From contig JAGFXI010000004.1 in assembly GCA_017861095.1 (NCBI GenBank), forward strand, positions 1-31,298: DNA of 31,298 nt, given 5' to 3'. Under the pieces are notes generated by a model that saw only the letters and a list, made by a program, of their open reading frames with translations, was not told the origin of the DNA and did no database searches. This document shows, one piece after another, positions 13,133 to 20,815 of the stretch. A program made the translations under genes and the position numbers. The stretch comes from Deltaproteobacteria bacterium. Its GTDB lineage: Bacteria > Desulfobacterota > Syntrophobacteria > BM002. Position 1 is the first letter of the stretch. Each line of letters begins with the position of its first letter.

Positions 13133-13304
13133 GCCTCAAAAATGCCGGAACTCCTTGAGCTTTCACCAGCCACGCGAGACCGCCCATATAGCCCTCGAAC
13201 CTCCCGCCCCGTACTCTCCCTGAGAGGCTATGGTAGATTCCCACCGCCCGAGCCGGCTCTGCAACCGCCTGCTCGGTAACGGCATATGATCCTCCCTCAC
13301 GCCT

Positions 13305-13334
13305 TGTGACCGAGGCCGGGTTTCACTCGTATAT
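13305..13334 (+). promoter_or_regulatory. ECF-type promoter, copy A (TGTGAC-N18-GTATAT)
   Basis: TGTGAC 13305-13310, 18-nt spacer, GTATAT 13329-13334. Points at the Gln-rich peptide gene; one of four same-spacing copies. Confidence 0.8.
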
Positions 13335-13551
13335 AGTGTCGACCGCTCGGGATTCCCACATCGTGGCCCCCATGGCCCAGCGCCCGCTCTCCCTTCTCCC
13401 GCGGGAGCTGTGCCATGGGGGTCGCGAGGGAGTTCCGTCGAAAGGAGGTGAGACTTCGTTGCACCTCTCGCCACGGGTGAGGCGAGGGTTGTTTCTCCTA
13501 GGGGAGAACCAGTTTTTCTTGGCAGCAATATCGAAAGCAGGAGGAGATCTC

Positions 13552-13809
13552 ATGAAAAGGCTGGCTACGTTGGTTGGGGTTACTCTAGTAACGGTAGCGC
13601 TGTCCACCCCGTGTTTCGCTGGGCCTGCCCGTGACCGGATGCGGCAACAGGATCGAACCAGGGATCAGATACACCTTCAGACGCAGACTCAATCTCAGGA
13701 CCGCACCCAGAGTCGGGACAGGGTCCAGCAGGGCACCCAAAGCAGAGTCCAGGACCAGACGAAGACCCAAGACCAAATCCAGAAGAGGGATCGGCTCCAC
13801 CAGCAGTAA
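13552..13809 (+). CDS. small exported Gln/Arg/Asp/Thr-rich repeat protein (85 aa)
   Basis: AGGAGG RBS; signal peptide MKRLATLVGVTLVTVALSTPCFA; QDRT/QTQ/RDR repeats. Confidence 0.8.
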   Translation: MKRLATLVGVTLVTVALSTPCFAGPARDRMRQQDRTRDQIHLQTQTQSQDRTQSRDRVQQGTQSRVQDQTKTQDQIQKRDRLHQQ

Positions 13810-13854
13810 CAAGGTCGACAACGGAGAAAGCAAACCTTCTCTGACAAAAGACAA

Positions 13855-13883
13855 ACGGCAGGACATTCGCTGGGTCCTGCCGT
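13855..13883. terminator. bidirectional terminator between convergent genes
   Basis: Perfect 10-bp stem ACGGCAGGAC/GTCCTGCCGT with a 9-nt loop, A-rich on the left and T-rich on the right. Confidence 0.7.
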
Positions 13884-13910
13884 CTTGTTTCACAAAGGCG
13901 CCATCAAGAC

Positions 13911-14759
13911 CTACTTGCCGCTGCCGCCACCTCCACCTCCGCCTCCACCTCCGCCTCCACCTCCGCCGCCCCCACCTCCACCTCCGGCACCGCCACCTCC
14001 GCCGCCACCCGCACCACCGCCACTCCCACCGCCGCCACCGTTACCCATCCCCCCACCATCGCCACCAATCCCGGAACTGCCCATTCCCCCGCCATGGCCG
14101 CCCATCCCGGAACCGCCCATCGCCCCATGTGGCCCACCACTTTGACTCATGCCGGCGAAGCCTCGGCCCGACTGATGGGAACTCCCACCCATGGCCATTC
14201 CTCGCCCGAGACCAGGGCTGCCGGAGCCCAAGGCGGCCATGCCATGCTTTGGTGCTCCCCTTTCGGTCAGTTGCCGCATGGTTGCTTCCATGCGCTCTCT
14301 ATCCCTGTCTCGGTCCCTATCCTTGTCCCGGTCTCTATCCCTTGCTACGGATTGATCGCGGCCGAGTGCCCCTTTAGGCCCAATGCCCATGAGGCCGGGA
14401 TCCATTCCCAACTCTTGGGAAATTTGCCCCCATCCCATGCCGACGGCACGCATCGCGCCTATGTCCTTGGCATGAACACCGGCCACATGGGCAAGGCTCT
14501 GTTGCATGTGGCTCTCGGCAATCTGGTTGCGCTCCCGAGCGCGGCCGATGTCCATCTCGGTTCCCCGTTGTTTTGCTGCTTGCAGTGCCCGGCCGGTCTG
14601 CTCCACCTGCTGGTAGGCGGCCGCTAGGTCTGAGACAGCAGATATATCATTGGGTTTATCGGCCCAACTCACGTTGCTCAGCAGGAGTAGGGTTATCAAG
14701 AACGTGCAAACAACAATAGCCCATTCTAGCGCTCTCCCCTTCCGGAACCTGGCTTCCAT
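13911..14759 (-). CDS. exported protein with RD repeats and a long C-terminal poly-Gly tail (282 aa)
   Basis: Hydrophobic N-terminal signal ending VSWA-D, a helical core, RDRDRDKDRDRDRDRE (18-bp period DNA repeat at 14299-14342) and a Gly/Met/Ser tail. GGAG RBS; preceded by promoter copy B. Confidence 0.75.
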   Translation of the reverse strand: MEARFRKGRALEWAIVVCTFLITLLLLSNVSWADKPNDISAVSDLAAAYQQVEQTGRALQAAKQRGTEMDIGRARERNQIAESHMQQSLAHVAGVHAKDIGAMRAVGMGWGQISQELGMDPGLMGIGPKGALGRDQSVARDRDRDKDRDRDRDRERMEATMRQLTERGAPKHGMAALGSGSPGLGRGMAMGGSSHQSGRGFAGMSQSGGPHGAMGGSGMGGHGGGMGSSGIGGDGGGMGNGGGGGSGGGAGGGGGGGAGGGGGGGGGGGGGGGGGGGGGSGK

Positions 14760-14824
14760 GACACACTCCTTGTCTCTATCTTGAGGGTTATGCGAATGTC
14801 AGAACGGCCGCTCGATTCACTCAG

Positions 14825-14854
14825 ATATACTGTCTCGTCTCTCTGAACGTCACA
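14825..14854 (-). promoter_or_regulatory. ECF-type promoter, copy B (TGTGAC-N18-GTATAT)
   Basis: Plus strand reads ATATAC 14825-14830, 18 nt, GTCACA 14849-14854. Lies 65 nt upstream of the poly-Gly gene start. Confidence 0.8.
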
Positions 14855-14884
14855 TGGCTGACACACTTTTCCCGGTCGACCGTT

Positions 14885-15835
14885 TTACTTCTTGGTAGTG
14901 ACAAAAGATACGGATTCGTCGAGGAGGTAGACCCGATTACCGGTCTCGATTGTCTCCGCGTTCCCTTCCCCCCTGGCCTTGAGTCGGGACGAATGGATAG
15001 TTGGGAAGGATGTCAAGAGCCAATCGCGTACCGCTCCGGCCCTAGCCGTTGCCTGAGGGGCGTTTCCTCGCACGTAAGCGACAATTTCCAGTTTGATCTC
15101 TTCGTTGATCTTCAAGATACTGCCAATGACCTCGAGGGAAAACTCGCCCCGGGAGATTGCTTTGGTCGACCCGGGAGCAAAGGCGATCGCCTCTAGAGGG
15201 ACCCGCCGGTAGCCGATGGCAAAATTGCGATAGGAGAAGTCGCCGAGTTCGTTGAGATGATCCACGGCACGGAGCGCCCATTTGCCATCAGGGTAGTACT
15301 TCACATACCCATTCCAAGCATCGACGGCCTCAGTGACTCTCCTTGATTCATTGAGAGCCAACCCTCTGTTGTAAAGCGCCTCCGGGTTGTACGGGTCTAG
15401 GCCAAGCACCTTCTCGTACTGGCGGAGGGCCATCTCCGGTCGTCCCCCATCAAGAAAATTGTGTCCCAGATACAGGCGGGCCGGGATGTAGTCCGGGTCT
15501 GCCGCTAGCGCGCGGAGATAGCTCGTGCGTTCCGCTTCAAAATCCCTGACCGCCCAATGGCCGACTCCGAGCCAGAAACAATACTCGGCACGGCGCGGCT
15601 CTAGCTCTGCCGCTCGTCGTAAAAAAGGCAGGGCCTGCTCGGGTTTTTCCTCAGCAAGATAGAAGCGGCCGAGATAGTAGTTCGCCGCCGGATCGTCCGG
15701 ATGAGCGCGCACTTCCTGATCGAAGTGGCGTACGCCATCCTCGTACTGTTCACTCGCGAGATAGTATCTTCCCAGCATAGTCGAGCAGCCCACGAGGCTC
15801 ACGAGCAGCCAGAGACCGAGCCACCTCAGATACAT
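14885..15835 (-). CDS. TPR-repeat lipoprotein with a degenerate C-terminal OmpA-like domain
   Basis: Lipobox LVGC; TPR patterns (ANYYLGRFYL...A..FLRRAAELEP, ARLYLG, ALYNRGLAL); C-terminal F..GS...L..I..IL...ARAGAVRDWL...RLKARGEG. GGAGG RBS before ATG 15835. Confidence 0.8.
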   Translation of the reverse strand: MYLRWLGLWLLVSLVGCSTMLGRYYLASEQYEDGVRHFDQEVRAHPDDPAANYYLGRFYLAEEKPEQALPFLRRAAELEPRRAEYCFWLGVGHWAVRDFEAERTSYLRALAADPDYIPARLYLGHNFLDGGRPEMALRQYEKVLGLDPYNPEALYNRGLALNESRRVTEAVDAWNGYVKYYPDGKWALRAVDHLNELGDFSYRNFAIGYRRVPLEAIAFAPGSTKAISRGEFSLEVIGSILKINEEIKLEIVAYVRGNAPQATARAGAVRDWLLTSFPTIHSSRLKARGEGNAETIETGNRVYLLDESVSFVTTKK

Positions 15836-15962
15836 GCGTTCCTTTCCTCCATGCCGGACGGGAAAGATCCGGCCCCGTGTGTCAGTCCCTCTTCGAGTGC
15901 CCTTGACCGCCAACGCCAAGGGATGGTCTCGCCCTGCGAAGGTCTCCTCACTCGTATCCCTG

Positions 15963-16751
15963 TCACGGCCCGCGACGGAGATCTCGGCTGGTGAAGCCAA
16001 GGGCGTACATGAGTTCCCGCAGGTCGCGCTTCTCTTCCAGGGCTGCTACCGTCGCCTCGGCTATCTGCTCACCGGAGATTCCCTTAGCTCGGGCGGCGAC
16101 GACCACCTTCGCAAGATAGCGCCACGATGGCGTGAACCCCTTCAGGCGGAGACCGGTCATGAGCATCCGGTTGATGAGATCCGCCTTCAGGTCGGTTTGC
16201 TTCAGTAAGGCAAGATTATCCACCGCGATGGCAAGCATAGCCGAAGGCACCGGTGGAGCGGTCTCCATAAAACGCTCGAGCTCCTGCCGCGACACTCCGG
16301 CACTGAGGCTGTCCACCAAGACCGTGAGGTCCTCGGCCGGGAGAGCCCCGGAAGCCTTCACAGGTCCTTGACGGCGGACGAGGTCCTGAACGAACCGGTA
16401 GTCATCGATTTTCTGCTCCAGGGCGATAGCAATCGACTTTGGAGGTATGCCCTTCGCTAGGCCCTCCTCGATCTTTAACAGAAAAGGCTCCACGGCGAGA
16501 TCGTTCGTCCGGGCCAACCGAAGCGTGGTCAAAAAATTGCTGACGTACTGCGGCGACAGCCGACGTTCCAAGCTAAGGGCGAGAACCCGGTTCAGCACAA
16601 CCTCGGGTACCCCCGCAGCGCGTGCCGCCTGCGTCGCTTCGGCAATGCCCTGCTCCGTGCCCTGGGCCTTCGCCCCTGCAGGACCAAGGCAGATCGCCAT
16701 GACCAGGAAAAATACGATGATTATGACAAGAGCCTCAGACTTCCCTCTCAT
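15963..16751 (-). CDS. exported all-helical hypothetical protein (262 aa)
   Basis: Signal peptide ending AKA-Q. Start overlaps the anti-sigma stop by 17 nt, consistent with translational coupling. No catalytic motif recognised. Confidence 0.75.
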   Translation of the reverse strand: MRGKSEALVIIIVFFLVMAICLGPAGAKAQGTEQGIAEATQAARAAGVPEVVLNRVLALSLERRLSPQYVSNFLTTLRLARTNDLAVEPFLLKIEEGLAKGIPPKSIAIALEQKIDDYRFVQDLVRRQGPVKASGALPAEDLTVLVDSLSAGVSRQELERFMETAPPVPSAMLAIAVDNLALLKQTDLKADLINRMLMTGLRLKGFTPSWRYLAKVVVAARAKGISGEQIAEATVAALEEKRDLRELMYALGFTSRDLRRGP

Positions 16752-17364
16752 CGTCTCCGCCCACCAAAATGATGGAGTTCCGGTTGCCAAAGCCATCGCT
16801 TTCCACGAAGGGTGAGCGGGGATCAGCCACCACGAGGCGGCCGTCTACAAGAAAGGCGTAACGGTAGCGACCCTCCGGAAGCTGGATCTTAAGCATCCAG
16901 AGCCGCCCTTCTGCCGTGGGCCGCATCTCGAACCCCGCAGGGCTCCACTCGTTGAATGAACCGATCAGGCTTACGGTATGGGCGCCAGGAGACTCGAGGG
17001 TAAAGACCACCGGGACCCGCTTCACGGTCTCCTGTTTCGCACCACGGAGCGCGGGTTGCCTCGGCGCGATGACCGTGCCGACCGCTACGACGAGCGCGGC
17101 TACCACTGCCGCCGCGGGAATGAGCTTCATGGGTGAGATGCTGAGTGTGTGCGGCGTGTGGAGCCAGAGGTACAAACGCCTCCAGGCGGAGATCCTCTTC
17201 GGCGCCAAGGATTCAAGAATCCTCCCGACCAGATCGGGCGGGGGCTCACGATCCGGCAGCCGCCGCAGCATCCGCTCGAGCAGGAGAAGCTCCTCGCTCC
17301 CTTGAGTTTTTCGCTCGTTCTTGGCCCGCCGGGGCGGGGACGGGCAGTCTTCAGGCTTCTTCAT
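16735..17364 (-). CDS. putative anti-sigma factor with one TM helix and a C-terminal CBM48/AMPK-beta-like (E-set) domain
   Basis: Starts 2 nt after the sigma stop. N-terminal LRRLPDREPPPDLVGRIL, TM AAAVVAALVVAVGTV, then VSLIGSFNEW...LPEGRYRYAFLVDG...DP...DGFGNRNS. Confidence 0.85.
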   Translation of the reverse strand: MKKPEDCPSPPRRAKNERKTQGSEELLLLERMLRRLPDREPPPDLVGRILESLAPKRISAWRRLYLWLHTPHTLSISPMKLIPAAAVVAALVVAVGTVIAPRQPALRGAKQETVKRVPVVFTLESPGAHTVSLIGSFNEWSPAGFEMRPTAEGRLWMLKIQLPEGRYRYAFLVDGRLVVADPRSPFVESDGFGNRNSIILVGGDDEREV

Positions 17365-17366
17365 GG

Positions 17367-17912
17367 TCAGCTCCCTTTGAGGCGCTGGCGCAGCATTTCC
17401 AGGCCGCGATTCAGCCGCATCTTGGCAGCGCTCAATGAAATACCGAGCGCCCGGGCGACATCGCGAATGGGCAGATCCTCGTGGTACCGAAGAAGCAAGG
17501 CCCCCCGGTAACCTAAAGGCAGCTCACCCAGGGCACGGTCCAGGTGGTCGTTGTCGAGCCGGTCGCAGAGACGGTCCTCTTCCTCATGAGGCGAACATGT
17601 GGCATTTGACCACAGCGAATTCTCGTCGCAGGGCACCGACGGCTTCCTTTTCCGCTGAAAATCCCGGGCGTGATTGAGCCCGATAGCGTACAGCCAGGGG
17701 AAAAACTTTGCTCCCGGCCGAAACCGCTCGAGATGTTCGTAGGCCTTTATGAAGGTCTCCTGGGCGAGGTCCGCAGCGAGATCAACAGAACCGCACATCC
17801 GATACATGAGATTGTAGATGGGCCTCTGATACCTGCGCACCAGAATGGCAAAGGCGTCCACGTCTCCCCTCAACACCCGGTTAATTGCGTTTTGTTCGTC
17901 GACTGTATCCAT
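17367..17912 (-). CDS. ECF-family RNA polymerase sigma factor
   Basis: GDVDAFAILVRRY, DLAQETFIKAY, F.PWLYAIGLNHARD (region 2); ALLLRYHEDLPIRDVARALGISLSAAKMRLNRG (region 4). Start placed at ATG 17912. Confidence 0.95.
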   Translation of the reverse strand: MDTVDEQNAINRVLRGDVDAFAILVRRYQRPIYNLMYRMCGSVDLAADLAQETFIKAYEHLERFRPGAKFFPWLYAIGLNHARDFQRKRKPSVPCDENSLWSNATCSPHEEEDRLCDRLDNDHLDRALGELPLGYRGALLLRYHEDLPIRDVARALGISLSAAKMRLNRGLEMLRQRLKGS

Positions 17913-18038
17913 ACGCGGTGTACTGGAGACGAGCAGGGCGCGCAAACGATACCCAATCGGCCTCAAGCGGATAGAAGAACCCCCGCCCTCACCCCATCCA
18001 TCGAAAGCGGGAACCCACAAGACACAAAATACCGATTA

Positions 18039-18068
18039 ATATACGAGCTGGAACCTCTCCGGGTCACA
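18039..18068 (-). promoter_or_regulatory. ECF-type promoter, copy C (autoregulatory, sigma operon)
   Basis: Plus strand reads ATATAC 18039-18044, 18 nt, GTCACA 18063-18068; on the minus strand CCATGTGAC-N17-CGTATAT. Confidence 0.85.
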
Positions 18069-18410
18069 TGGTAGCGGGTTCCCAAGAAAGAGACTCACTC
18101 ACCGCAGACGGCCCGCCCCTTGCCCGGGTGAGCGACTGAGCTCAATAACCCTTGTGACCTACCTGATCTTTTTCACTCACGAAGACCGGCCAAATATTAT
18201 AGGTGCCCCTTTGCTGGTTAGACAAGTTATATCACTGACTCATGCCGCTTATATGGCTCCTATTCTCAGGGCGTAAGTCTATAAGGCCACCGAGAAGTTT
18301 CAGTTTTTCCTTGGGCCCCTCCTGGACTCCTGAAGATCCTTCACCGTACAGCCGCGCCTTCTGAACGGTGAGATTTTTGGGGTATGCGGAGCCTCGATTG
18401 AAAAAAAGTT

Positions 18411-18440
18411 TGTGACCAATGGGCTCCCCCCTCCGTATCT
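18411..18440 (+). promoter_or_regulatory. ECF-type promoter, copy D (TGTGAC-N18-GTATCT)
   Basis: TGTGAC 18411-18416, 18 nt, GTATCT 18435-18440, with an upstream A-tract. Points at the ferritin-like gene. Confidence 0.8.
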
Positions 18441-18531
18441 AATCAATGAGTCCAAGACCTTCCCTCCTCGGCAAGCCGCCTAATGGAGAAAAGTACCGTG
18501 TCATGCGACCGGGGTAGGGCCGATCGGTGAC

Positions 18532-18622
18532 AGCAGCGAGCCATCTGGGGTAATGGGCAGTTCCGGTATGAGCCGCCATGGCGGGGGGAATGGGCGACGG
18601 TGGCGGAGCGGGGTGCCGTTGA
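18532..18622 (+). pseudogene. decayed fragment paralogous to the 3' part of the poly-Gly gene
   Basis: ATGGGCAGTTCCGGTATGAGCCGCCATGGCGGGGGGAATGGGC (from 18553) matches the minus-strand read of about 14079-14120, ATGGGCGGTTCCGGGATGGGCGGCCATGGCGGGGGAATGGGC, with 4 substitutions and one extra G. Confidence 0.6.
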
Positions 18623-18698
18623 CTTCCCGCGGGCAGGTAACGGCGAGGCAGTGCCAGGAAGAGGCTGGAGAAAAGAATAACGAAAGGAGAGCTTGGTT

Positions 18699-19253
18699 AT
18701 GAGAGACACACTCAAAGTTGACGCAAGAAGATGGTTTGTTGCGGGTGGACTTCTTCTGTTGATGAGCATCACTTCGCTTGGCTACGTGCAGGCCGCCGGC
18801 TTGACCGCCGCCGAGAAATATTGGCTGACTTATATGCGTGAAGAGGAAAAACTCGCCCGGGATGTATACTTGGCAATGCATGCGAAGTGGGGAGCCGCGA
18901 TTTTCGCCAATATCGCTGCATCCGAACAGAGACACATGGATGCAGTCAAGAGTTTGCTCGACAAATATAATCTCCCCGACCCCGCATCAGACGACACACC
19001 TGGGGTGTTTACCGACACGTTTCAAGCTCTTTACAACAACCTGGAAGCGCAGGGAAGCGTCTCTCTGGTTGAGGCACTCAAGGTGGGTGTGTTTATAGAG
19101 GAGACGGATATCGCCGACCTGAACGAGGGAATCGCTTCAGCCAAACACAAGGACATAAAGACCGTCTATAGCAACCTTCTACAGGGTTCGCTGAATCATC
19201 TAAAGGCATTCGTCTCTGAACTGGCGAGTAACGGAGTTACATACGAGCCATAG
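18699..19253 (+). CDS. exported ferritin-like protein (DUF2202-type)
   Basis: MREEEKLARDVY, SEQRH, GVFIEETDIADL and GSLNHL four-helix ligand pattern. N-terminal RRWFV plus hydrophobic stretch; AAAGGAGA RBS. Confidence 0.85.
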   Translation: MRDTLKVDARRWFVAGGLLLLMSITSLGYVQAAGLTAAEKYWLTYMREEEKLARDVYLAMHAKWGAAIFANIAASEQRHMDAVKSLLDKYNLPDPASDDTPGVFTDTFQALYNNLEAQGSVSLVEALKVGVFIEETDIADLNEGIASAKHKDIKTVYSNLLQGSLNHLKAFVSELASNGVTYEP

Positions 19254-19340
19254 CATCCGCGCATGCCTCTCCGCTACCTTTTTGTAAAGTAAAACGACCA
19301 AAGTGCCACAGAAATAATGCCATCTCATGGAGGCATCTCA

Positions 19341-19575: not shown

Positions 19576-20469
19576 CTATCCTGCCAGTTTCTCCGCCAAC
19601 GTCAATACAACAATCCCGAGCCCGATGCGGTACACCGCAAAGGGAACGAATCCGCGTCTCCGCACCCACGCCATGAACCACGCCACCGAGGCGTAGGCCA
19701 CGATGAAGGAAACAACAAAGCCGATCGCCAGCACCACCCATCCGTGCGCGTCAATGTGCGTTGCCCCGATCGGGTTGGCACCGCCCGGACGGAGCGATTT
19801 GAAGAGGTCGTATCCCGTGGCCACCACCATTGTCGGAATCGAGAGGAAGAAAGAAAACTCCAACGCCGAGGCCCGCGACATCCCCGCCACTTGCCCTGCC
19901 GCAATCGTGGCCATGGACCGCGAGGTTCCTGGAAAGACAGCGGAGAGCACCTGGCACGCGCCGATCCAGATCGCCTGCGCCAGATTCATCTCCTCCATGT
20001 TCCAGGTCCGGATCCGGCTCTCCGGGGCGCCCGCCCCGGCGGTTTCCGAGGGCGCGTTCACCGCATCCACGATCCACATCACGATGCCGCCGATGACAAG
20101 CGCCCCGCCCATGACATAGAGGCTCTCCAGGTGTTTGCCAATGATCTTCGTCAACAGGAAAGCGGGCAGGGCCGTCATGAGAAAAGCCACGATGGTGAGG
20201 CCCAGCGGATGGGTAAGCAGCGTCCGGTCTCCGCGTTTGCCGCCGGGAAAGTCGGAAAGGAACGCCACGATGCGCGAGCGGAAGTAGATCGGCAGGCAGA
20301 GGATGGCGCCGAGCTGGATGACGATGGAATACATCTTCCAATAGCCGTCTGAGAGGCTCACATGGCAGAGCGCCTCCGCTATCCGTAGATGCGCGGTGGA
20401 ACTCACGGGGAGAAATTCCGTCAGGCCTTCGATGACGCCCAATAGCAGGGACAGCAGGTAGTCGTTCAC
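19576..20469 (-). CDS. uppP: undecaprenyl-diphosphate phosphatase (BacA/UppP)
   Basis: GVIEGLTEFLPVSSTAH, VIQLGAIL, FPGTSRSMATI, EFSFFLSIP, FVPFAVYR. GTG start 20469 with GGAGG RBS. Confidence 0.96.
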   Translation of the reverse strand: MNDYLLSLLLGVIEGLTEFLPVSSTAHLRIAEALCHVSLSDGYWKMYSIVIQLGAILCLPIYFRSRIVAFLSDFPGGKRGDRTLLTHPLGLTIVAFLMTALPAFLLTKIIGKHLESLYVMGGALVIGGIVMWIVDAVNAPSETAGAGAPESRIRTWNMEEMNLAQAIWIGACQVLSAVFPGTSRSMATIAAGQVAGMSRASALEFSFFLSIPTMVVATGYDLFKSLRPGGANPIGATHIDAHGWVVLAIGFVVSFIVAYASVAWFMAWVRRRGFVPFAVYRIGLGIVVLTLAEKLAG

Positions 20470-20815
20470 GGTGCCTCCAGAGGATGAATTGGGAGTGTAT
20501 CGCCGAAATGGCCGACCCTCTTCCGTGTGATTTTGGTTCGACAAAGGGAACCAACGTGAGATTGGCAATACGTCGCTTCTGGCGGGAAGAGGTATGGCAC
20601 GGAGGTGTCCCGGGTGTCAAGCATCCAGGACCGCCGGGCGCTGTTCCAGGTGGCGGACGTATTTGAGCCTGATCGGCGTTGCCGGCTCTCCATCTCTCCA
20701 TTGGATTCTCCCCCCTTGGAGAGGCAAGGGGATTGTGGTATGAGCTTATCGACAACGCCGGTCGGTCACTCCTGTCAGCCCATGGCCGATCGGGCAGCGA
20801 CCCTGAGGCAACACC

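Follow-up and report, generated by a model that had tools for sequence, protein, structure and literature searches.

The window analysed here is a 31,298-nt stretch that makes up contig C320 of a metagenome-assembled genome (MAG) of a Deltaproteobacteria bacterium (2.85 Mb in 473 contigs, 76% complete). It contains a gene for an extracytoplasmic function (ECF) sigma factor and, around this gene, four copies of the bipartite motif TGTGAC-N18-GTAT(A/C)T. With a probability of roughly 85%, we consider these copies to be the cognate promoters of this sigma factor, defining an autoregulated mini-regulon that would also include an anti-sigma factor and a small set of outputs. An earlier, sequence-only reading had listed the four copies with an identical spacing of 18 nt, had described each of them as intergenic and pointing into a different gene or operon, including that of the sigma factor itself, and had noted a C before GTAT in three of them. 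These observations were all confirmed. There are exactly four matches in the window where 0 are expected (none of 100 dinucleotide-preserving shuffles contained a match), the gene map places all four between genes and in the same direction as the next gene, and the base preceding GTAT is C in three copies and A in the copy at 14854. Copy 3 lies 126 nt from the sigma ATG and copy 1 lies 217 nt from the gene for a Gln-rich (Q-rich) peptide. Copy 4 is about 258 nt from the DUF2202 gene, in an orientation opposite to that of copy 3 and away from the sigma gene, and copy 2 is inside the 125-nt gap upstream of the minus-strand poly-Gly gene (Table 1).

The motif is rare outside this cluster. The pattern TGTGAC-N18-GTAT has 6 matches in the whole assembly, and spacings of 14-17 and 19-22 nt give 0-3 matches each. 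Both matches beyond the window look fortuitous, one being within a long open reading frame (ORF) and the other having no convincing downstream gene. The motif matches recorded elsewhere in the genome are probably chance, with C421:2802 and C356:6428 within long ORFs and C291:162 and C388:8529 lacking a convincing downstream gene. For the genome-wide scan, which the sequence-only reading had proposed, we made a weight matrix exclusively from sites found in related genomes and ran it over the whole MAG. It ranks copies 4, 1 and 3 of the window as the top three sites of the genome (scores in Table 1), followed by a site of 15.5 bits, with a control ceiling of 12.4 bits (the best match on reversed or complemented sequence). 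We rejected the idea that the four copies stem from a repeat or a mobile element, as they have only the motif letters in common and their spacers and flanks are unrelated. A degenerate second copy, GGTGAC-N18-GTAAT at 18526-18555 (+), is present within the DUF2202 leader; it is below the weight-matrix threshold and may be chance.

Table 1. Motif copies and genes of the sigma factor cluster (positions in the window)
Feature	Position	Strand	Description
Promoter copy 1 (predicted)	13305-13334	+	TGTGACC-N16-TCGTATAT, ahead of Q-rich exported peptide gene; 22.2 bits, genome rank 2
Promoter copy 2 (predicted)	14825-14854	-	TGTGACG-N16-CAGTATAT, ahead of poly-Gly gene; weakest, 12.2 bits
Promoter copy 3 (predicted)	18039-18068	-	TGTGACC-N16-TCGTATAT, putatively autoregulatory, ahead of sigma operon; 21.7 bits
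Promoter copy 4 (predicted)	18411-18440	+	TGTGACC-N16-CCGTATCT, ahead of DUF2202 gene; 24.7 bits, top site of the genome
Q-rich peptide gene	13552-13809	+	85 aa, rich in Gln/Arg/Asp/Thr, N-terminal signal-like segment
Poly-Gly gene	13911-14759	-	282-aa exported protein with RD repeat and Gly/Met/His-rich tail ending in about 40 glycines
TPR/OmpA gene	14885-16000	-	fourth of sigma operon; TPR repeats and weak OmpA-like C-terminus; position kept in relatives
P3 gene	15963-16796	-	third of sigma operon; exported protein of unknown family; position kept in relatives
Anti-sigma candidate gene	16735-17364	-	209 aa; cytoplasmic N-terminus, one transmembrane helix, C-terminal CBM48/AMPK1_CBM domain
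ECF sigma gene	17367-17912	-	181 aa from ATG at 17912; open frame extends to TTG at 18020
DUF2202 gene	18699-19253	+	exported ferritin-like protein; ATG at 18699 after AAAGGAG site

Conservation of the motif in relatives lends support to this interpretation. Orthologues of the sigma factor (45-59% identity, E below 1e-45) were found in 20 of 60 related genomes, belonging to two families of the same class, and we mapped the cluster proteins and the motif in the neighbourhoods of the orthologous genes, taking up to 10 kb of sequence either side. The exact pattern TGTGAC-N18-GTAT is present upstream of the sigma gene at 13 of 21 orthologous loci, and variants with one or two letters changed and the same spacing (GGTGAC, TGTGAG, GTAA) occur at five more, which brings the total to 18/21. 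Among the remaining loci, one has an assembly gap at that place and two show nothing. When 16-20 nt were allowed between the boxes, all 21 matches at orthologous loci (L008-L034) turned out to have one and the same spacing. A de novo search upstream of the orthologous sigma genes, also suggested in the sequence-only reading, recovered the same motif. In the 300 nt upstream of 18 non-redundant orthologues, the 6-mers TGTGAC, GTGACC and GTATAT occur at 13, 13 and 10 loci, respectively, compared with 0, 1 and 0 in equal-sized coding controls, and the commonest 5-gap-5 dyad is GTGAC-18-GTATA (12/18 loci). The 34 compiled sites are also conserved at positions that were not part of the search pattern, namely, C after TGTGAC (27/34), C or T before GTAT (32/34), and A and T after GTAT (32/34 and 28/34, respectively). 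The consensus of the motif is tTGTGACC-N16-(C/T)GTATAT, and the 16-nt spacer is not conserved.

The motif is likewise conserved ahead of other genes of the cluster. In genus g2, 6 loci have it in the region that separates the TPR/OmpA gene from the poly-Gly homologue, which is the position of copy 2, and these relatives have consensus copies there. Two genomes (G005 and G055) have it ahead of DUF2202 homologues. In relatives the motif also precedes other exported-protein genes, which encode a 135-aa protein, a 200-aa protein, a di-haem cytochrome c peroxidase (G037) and a small repeat peptide (G043). The sequence-only reading had defined the regulon as the sigma operon, the poly-Gly protein, the Gln-rich peptide and the ferritin-like protein. 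The motif is kept at the homologues of three of these four, namely, the sigma, poly-Gly and DUF2202 genes; for the Q-rich peptide, no homologue was detectable among the relatives.

The motif also goes together with the sigma gene. TGTGAC-N18-GTATA has 41 matches in the 21 genomes with a sigma orthologue, compared with 7 for the reversed-pattern control, and 13 matches in the 40 genomes without one, compared with 13 for the control. Of the latter 13 matches, three come from g2 assemblies that are fragmented or gapped, and these are clearly homologous sites. One genome without a sigma gene, G007, has a perfect copy of the sigma-type motif (L059, G007:C1 at about 2197553) followed by a 100-N scaffold gap, and the missing sigma gene in this genome is probably an assembly artefact.

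The sigma family reaches a second class, as it is also found in the Desulfohalobiaceae. There the operon has the order Gly/His-tail protein, sigma factor, CBM48 anti-sigma, P3 and TPR/OmpA. In genomes with a GC content of just 43-44%, the sole copy of the motif, TTGTGAC-N17-CGTATATATAAG, is located ahead of the first gene of this operon, that for the Gly/His-tail protein (L065:4842-5774 and L066:4904-5784). Desulfonauticus has TGTAAC-N17-CGTATATA at the same position, with the classical ECF 'AAC'. Related genomes are not independent samples, which weighs against our reading; despite this kinship, the motif pattern holds across three deep lineages. A side observation concerns the Gly/His-tail protein of the Desulfohalobiaceae, whose central block GLGWGQIAQELGLHPGLLGLG is kept in the poly-Gly protein of the window as GMGWGQISQELGMDPGLMGIG. 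The sole PDB match of the Gly/His-tail protein was discarded as composition-driven (E 0.003). In another family, f6 (L045-L054, e.g., L047:5551-5979 (-)), a second small membrane-anchored CBM48 protein of about 140 aa is encoded directly upstream of the sigma gene, and the motif lies in the short gap just past the stop codon of this small gene. In one member of this family, G043, the P3 homologue (L050:8124-9146 (-)) itself has a terminal Gly-rich tail, about 80 residues long. The poly-Gly tail thus moves between different module proteins in different lineages. P3 was also considered as a relative of the poly-Gly protein, and this was rejected, as no relatedness between the two could be detected.

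The domain content of the sigma factor is that of the ECF (group 4) sigma-70 family: the 181-aa protein has the Pfam domains Sigma70_r2 and Sigma70_r4_2 and no region 3, and its orthologues align from the MDTVDEQ start. It scores 88.8 bits against the ECF superfamily model TIGR02937 (cutoff, 42.9). SigW is its best named match among the hidden Markov models (HMMs), and the best solved structure is 5wuq (E 6e-26). The scores against the SigW equivalogs (121.2 bits for NF007223, cutoff 209, and 115.1 bits for TIGR02948, cutoff 243.1) and the RpoE equivalog (91.9 bits for TIGR02939, cutoff 236.15) stay below their cutoffs. Because the superfamily cutoff is passed and the equivalog cutoffs are missed, the protein is an ECF sigma factor but an orthologue of neither of its two best named relatives, SigW and RpoE. 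A search of genome contigs with the sigma factor returned just two distant Bacteroidota loci, with 25-29% identity.

The next gene of the operon encodes the candidate anti-sigma factor. Its gene position, its membrane topology, a weak match to the anti-sigma model NF052375, relatives in which zf-HC2 and CBM48 occur in one protein, and a complex model all point to this role. The N-terminal 90 residues have a single Cys and no HxxxCxxC, and the protein has no zf-HC2 match. This leaves it outside the definition of the zinc-binding ZAS class I, though some of its relatives carry zf-HC2. The complex prediction for residues 37-217 of the sigma factor and residues 1-90 of the candidate gave a score of 0.73, compared with 0.01 for the best control; a score of this height was reached by 51 of 78 solved complexes and by 2 of 108 mismatched pairs. 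The predicted contacts are on residues 54-94 and 155-214 and touch both sigma domains. Because similar complexes have already been solved, the prediction indicates likeness to such complexes rather than proving binding.

The mechanism that we propose is a textbook autoregulated ECF circuit, here in a little-studied lineage of sulfate reducers. TGTGAC(C) would be the -35 element and (C/T)GTATAT the -10 element, with a spacer of 17 nt when counted as is usual for ECF promoters, from TGTGAC to CGT. At rest, the sigma factor would be kept at the membrane by the anti-sigma candidate, which is predicted to bind the sigma factor through a cytoplasmic segment, to cross the membrane with one helix and to expose its CBM48-like domain to the periplasm. 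An envelope or periplasmic signal, which the CBM48-like domain would sense, would then free the sigma factor in a manner that we can only infer, and RNA polymerase carrying it would start at the four promoters. One of these would drive the four-gene sigma operon (sigma, anti-sigma candidate, exported P3 and TPR/OmpA-like protein; all on the minus strand, with starts and stops that overlap or abut), resulting in positive feedback. The other three would each drive a single gene for an exported protein: the poly-Gly/Met/His-tailed protein, the Gln-rich peptide and the ferritin-like DUF2202 protein. In the genome at hand, which is 76% complete, the regulon does not extend beyond this 6-kb cluster. 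That the motif is the cognate promoter of the ECF sigma factor, as the sequence-only reading had proposed, is supported by its conserved position and spacing, by its co-occurrence with the sigma gene and by a SigW-like CGTA in the -10 part.

Several observations weigh against this interpretation. Copy 2 is at the noise level of the weight matrix, 12.2 bits against a control maximum of 12.4, and, with the genome incomplete, further members of the regulon may have been missed. Nearly all sites have GAC as their -35 core, whereas ECF promoters typically have AAC, which was found here in Desulfonauticus alone. The -10 part begins with CGT in three of the four window copies and with C/T-GT in 32 of the 34 compiled sites, and it also contains TATAT. 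This last point leads to the alternative that survives best, although we still regard it as improbable: the sites could be housekeeping sigma-70-type promoters (-35 GTGACC, an 18-nt spacer and -10 TATAT) that resemble each other through a shared activator or repressor, the ECF sigma gene being merely one of the regulated genes. Read in this way, copy 3 (GTGACC-18-TATATT) agrees with the sigma-70 consensus in 9 of 12 letters, the spacer being 18 nt long, and the TATAT is conserved. However, conservation falls on TGTGACC and (C/T)GTATAT rather than on TTGACA and TATAAT. The conserved C/T-G that immediately precedes TATAT corresponds to the ECF 'CGT' pattern, not to an extended -10, and at 18 nt the spacer departs from the 17 nt that are optimal for sigma-70. 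Moreover, the motif hardly occurs elsewhere in the genome and its excess is limited to genomes that carry the sigma gene.

RNA data were also considered. Of the 24 sequencing runs listed, 17 contain 43-89% of the words sampled from the stretch. These are all of the DNA type, coming from wetland, freshwater, subsurface, soil, sediment and mine-drainage samples, and a few RNA libraries contain parts of the stretch. We placed the assembled contigs of four RNA-type runs on positions 13200-19300. The Q-rich gene is the part of the cluster most often represented in these contigs: a 459-nt contig of X20 covers 13359-13814 with 5 differences, starting 25 nt past the -10 of copy 1 and ending 5 nt past the stop codon. 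Contigs of X25 (18456-18722) and X27 (18470-18715) start 16 and 30 nt past the -10 of copy 4, respectively. These contigs are compatible with transcripts that start at the predicted promoters and give weak support. On the opposing side, copy 4 lies within a 151-nt piece of X19 (18314-18464) and copy 2 within a contig of X27 (14725-14955). Because of these spanning contigs, there is read-through, another promoter or DNA carry-over. The RNA contigs are also of low depth and strandless, and X25 may be DNA. The intergenic region between the sigma and DUF2202 genes has two sigma-70-like matches, TTCACT-17-TATTAT at 18172-18200 (+) and TTGTCT-18-TATAAT at 18196-18225 (-), and the one on the plus strand could explain the piece that spans copy 4.

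Two further explanations are very improbable in our view. TGTGA is a half-site of the CRP family, and the motif could be bound by a conventional transcription factor, such as one of the CRP/FNR type, and not be a promoter, with the fixed spacing reflecting a protein that touches two boxes. Against this, the boxes show neither dyad symmetry nor a direct repeat, the 16-nt spacer is unconserved, every copy faces its downstream gene at 40-220 nt ahead of a start codon (about 258 nt for copy 4), and the -10 box matches the SigW-type CGTA; furthermore, it is the sigma gene and not a transcription factor gene that travels with the cluster. The sites might instead be promoters of a different alternative sigma factor, such as a paralogous ECF sigma encoded elsewhere, given that ECF sigmas can share promoters (PMC5758882) and that a first-look filter gave six candidates for the sigma query in the genome, but the motif is upstream of orthologues of this sigma in three lineages, its excess co-occurs with them and the conserved neighbourhood of the cluster contains no other sigma gene.

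The proposed ECF circuit resembles that of SigW of Bacillus subtilis in several respects. Both have a two-domain ECF sigma factor, a -10 with CGTA and a -35 of the TG..AC form, and in both the sigma operon is autoregulated and the adjoining gene encodes a single-pass membrane anti-sigma (both here by prediction). SigW controls some sixty genes, whereas about four promoters are seen here, and the SigW spacer is N16, so that the motif of the window would be one base longer. Counted in the SigW manner, the latter reads TGTGAC-N17-CGTA(TAT), with a -35 in which GAC replaces AAC, and the anti-sigma candidate differs by its lack of a zinc motif and its CBM48-like outer domain. In B. subtilis, SigW promoters have tgaAAC at -35 and CGTA at -10, the latter conferring selective recognition by SigW, and spacer optima of ECF sigmas are 14-17 bp (PMC5758882), which puts the spacer found here at the upper end of the range. 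The Escherichia coli sigmaE-RseA system is similar in its sequestration of an ECF sigma by a membrane anti-sigma, with sigma domains 2 and 4 enclosing the cytoplasmic part of the latter (here as predicted contacts), and in its positive autoregulation and envelope outputs. It differs in promoter sequence, and no RseB, DegS or RseP partner was seen in our cluster, whose putative outputs are low-complexity exported proteins and a ferritin-like protein.

Staron reportedly predicted group-specific ECF target promoters from autoregulation in 2009, and it is standard practice to predict the target promoters of autoregulated ECF sigmas from motifs conserved upstream of their genes (Casas-Pastor 2021, PMC7826278). 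Our analysis resembles that ECF classification, which comprises 157 groups, in that a bipartite motif upstream of orthologous ECF genes and their neighbours defines the promoter and the local regulon. The main text of this classification has no mention of CBM48/AMPK1_CBM, DUF2202 or TGTGA. In the searchable literature we found no description of the promoter, of a zinc-less CBM48 anti-sigma or of the output set, and the match to TGTGAC was a cloning primer.

The Gly/Met/His tail (Gly/His in the Desulfohalobiaceae), the ferritin-like DUF2202 protein and the cytochrome c peroxidase of one relative suggest a periplasmic metal or redox-stress response, a speculative idea that we hold to be rather less probable than its opposite. 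The broader proposal is slightly more doubtful still. The sigma factor, the zinc-less CBM48-type anti-sigma, P3, TPR/OmpA and the Gly/His-tailed protein might represent an unclassified ECF group of the Thermodesulfobacteriota, with the promoter TGTGAC-N17-CGTATAT lacking the canonical AAC and a tiny regulon of exported low-complexity and ferritin-like proteins, and this would constitute an undescribed periplasmic metal/redox-stress response of anaerobes. In any case, the analysis provides a testable wiring diagram, with one sigma, one anti-sigma, four promoters and seven genes, for an uncharacterised module of sulfate-reducing and syntrophic Thermodesulfobacteriota. The promoter consensus allows the regulon to be predicted in any genome carrying the sigma gene, and the exported poly-Gly/His and Gln-rich proteins and the DUF2202 protein are flagged as outputs to study. 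A compact and apparently insulated set of sigma, anti-sigma and promoters could also serve as an orthogonal switch.

Some features of the individual genes remain to be mentioned. All products of the cluster other than the sigma factor are probably exported, because each begins with a hydrophobic segment followed by a small-x-small site (sequences read by eye). The DUF2202 protein is related to MJ0754 of Methanocaldococcus jannaschii (PDB 3q4n, E 2e-44), and its 250-nt leader folds no better than shuffled sequences (z +1.34). The cluster is adjoined by a gene for a BacA/UppP undecaprenyl-diphosphatase at 19576-20568 (-) (Pfam E 1.7e-69), which has no copy of the motif upstream. In other bacteria, undecaprenyl-pyrophosphate phosphatases belong to the targets of ECF sigmas. 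For the Q-rich peptide there was no Pfam or NCBIfam match, and its gene has a strong ribosome-binding site, AGGAGGAG, 5 nt upstream. An Rfam search of the whole window found no family. The leader of the Q-rich gene (about 210 nt) contains a long near-perfect hairpin at 13348-13437 (+), followed by two terminator-like stems at 13465-13508. The region 13340-13560 folds with a minimum free energy of -107.6 kcal/mol (z -4.6; none of 200 shuffles folds as well), and the hairpin might act in attenuation or RNA stability, or might represent an inserted palindromic repeat.

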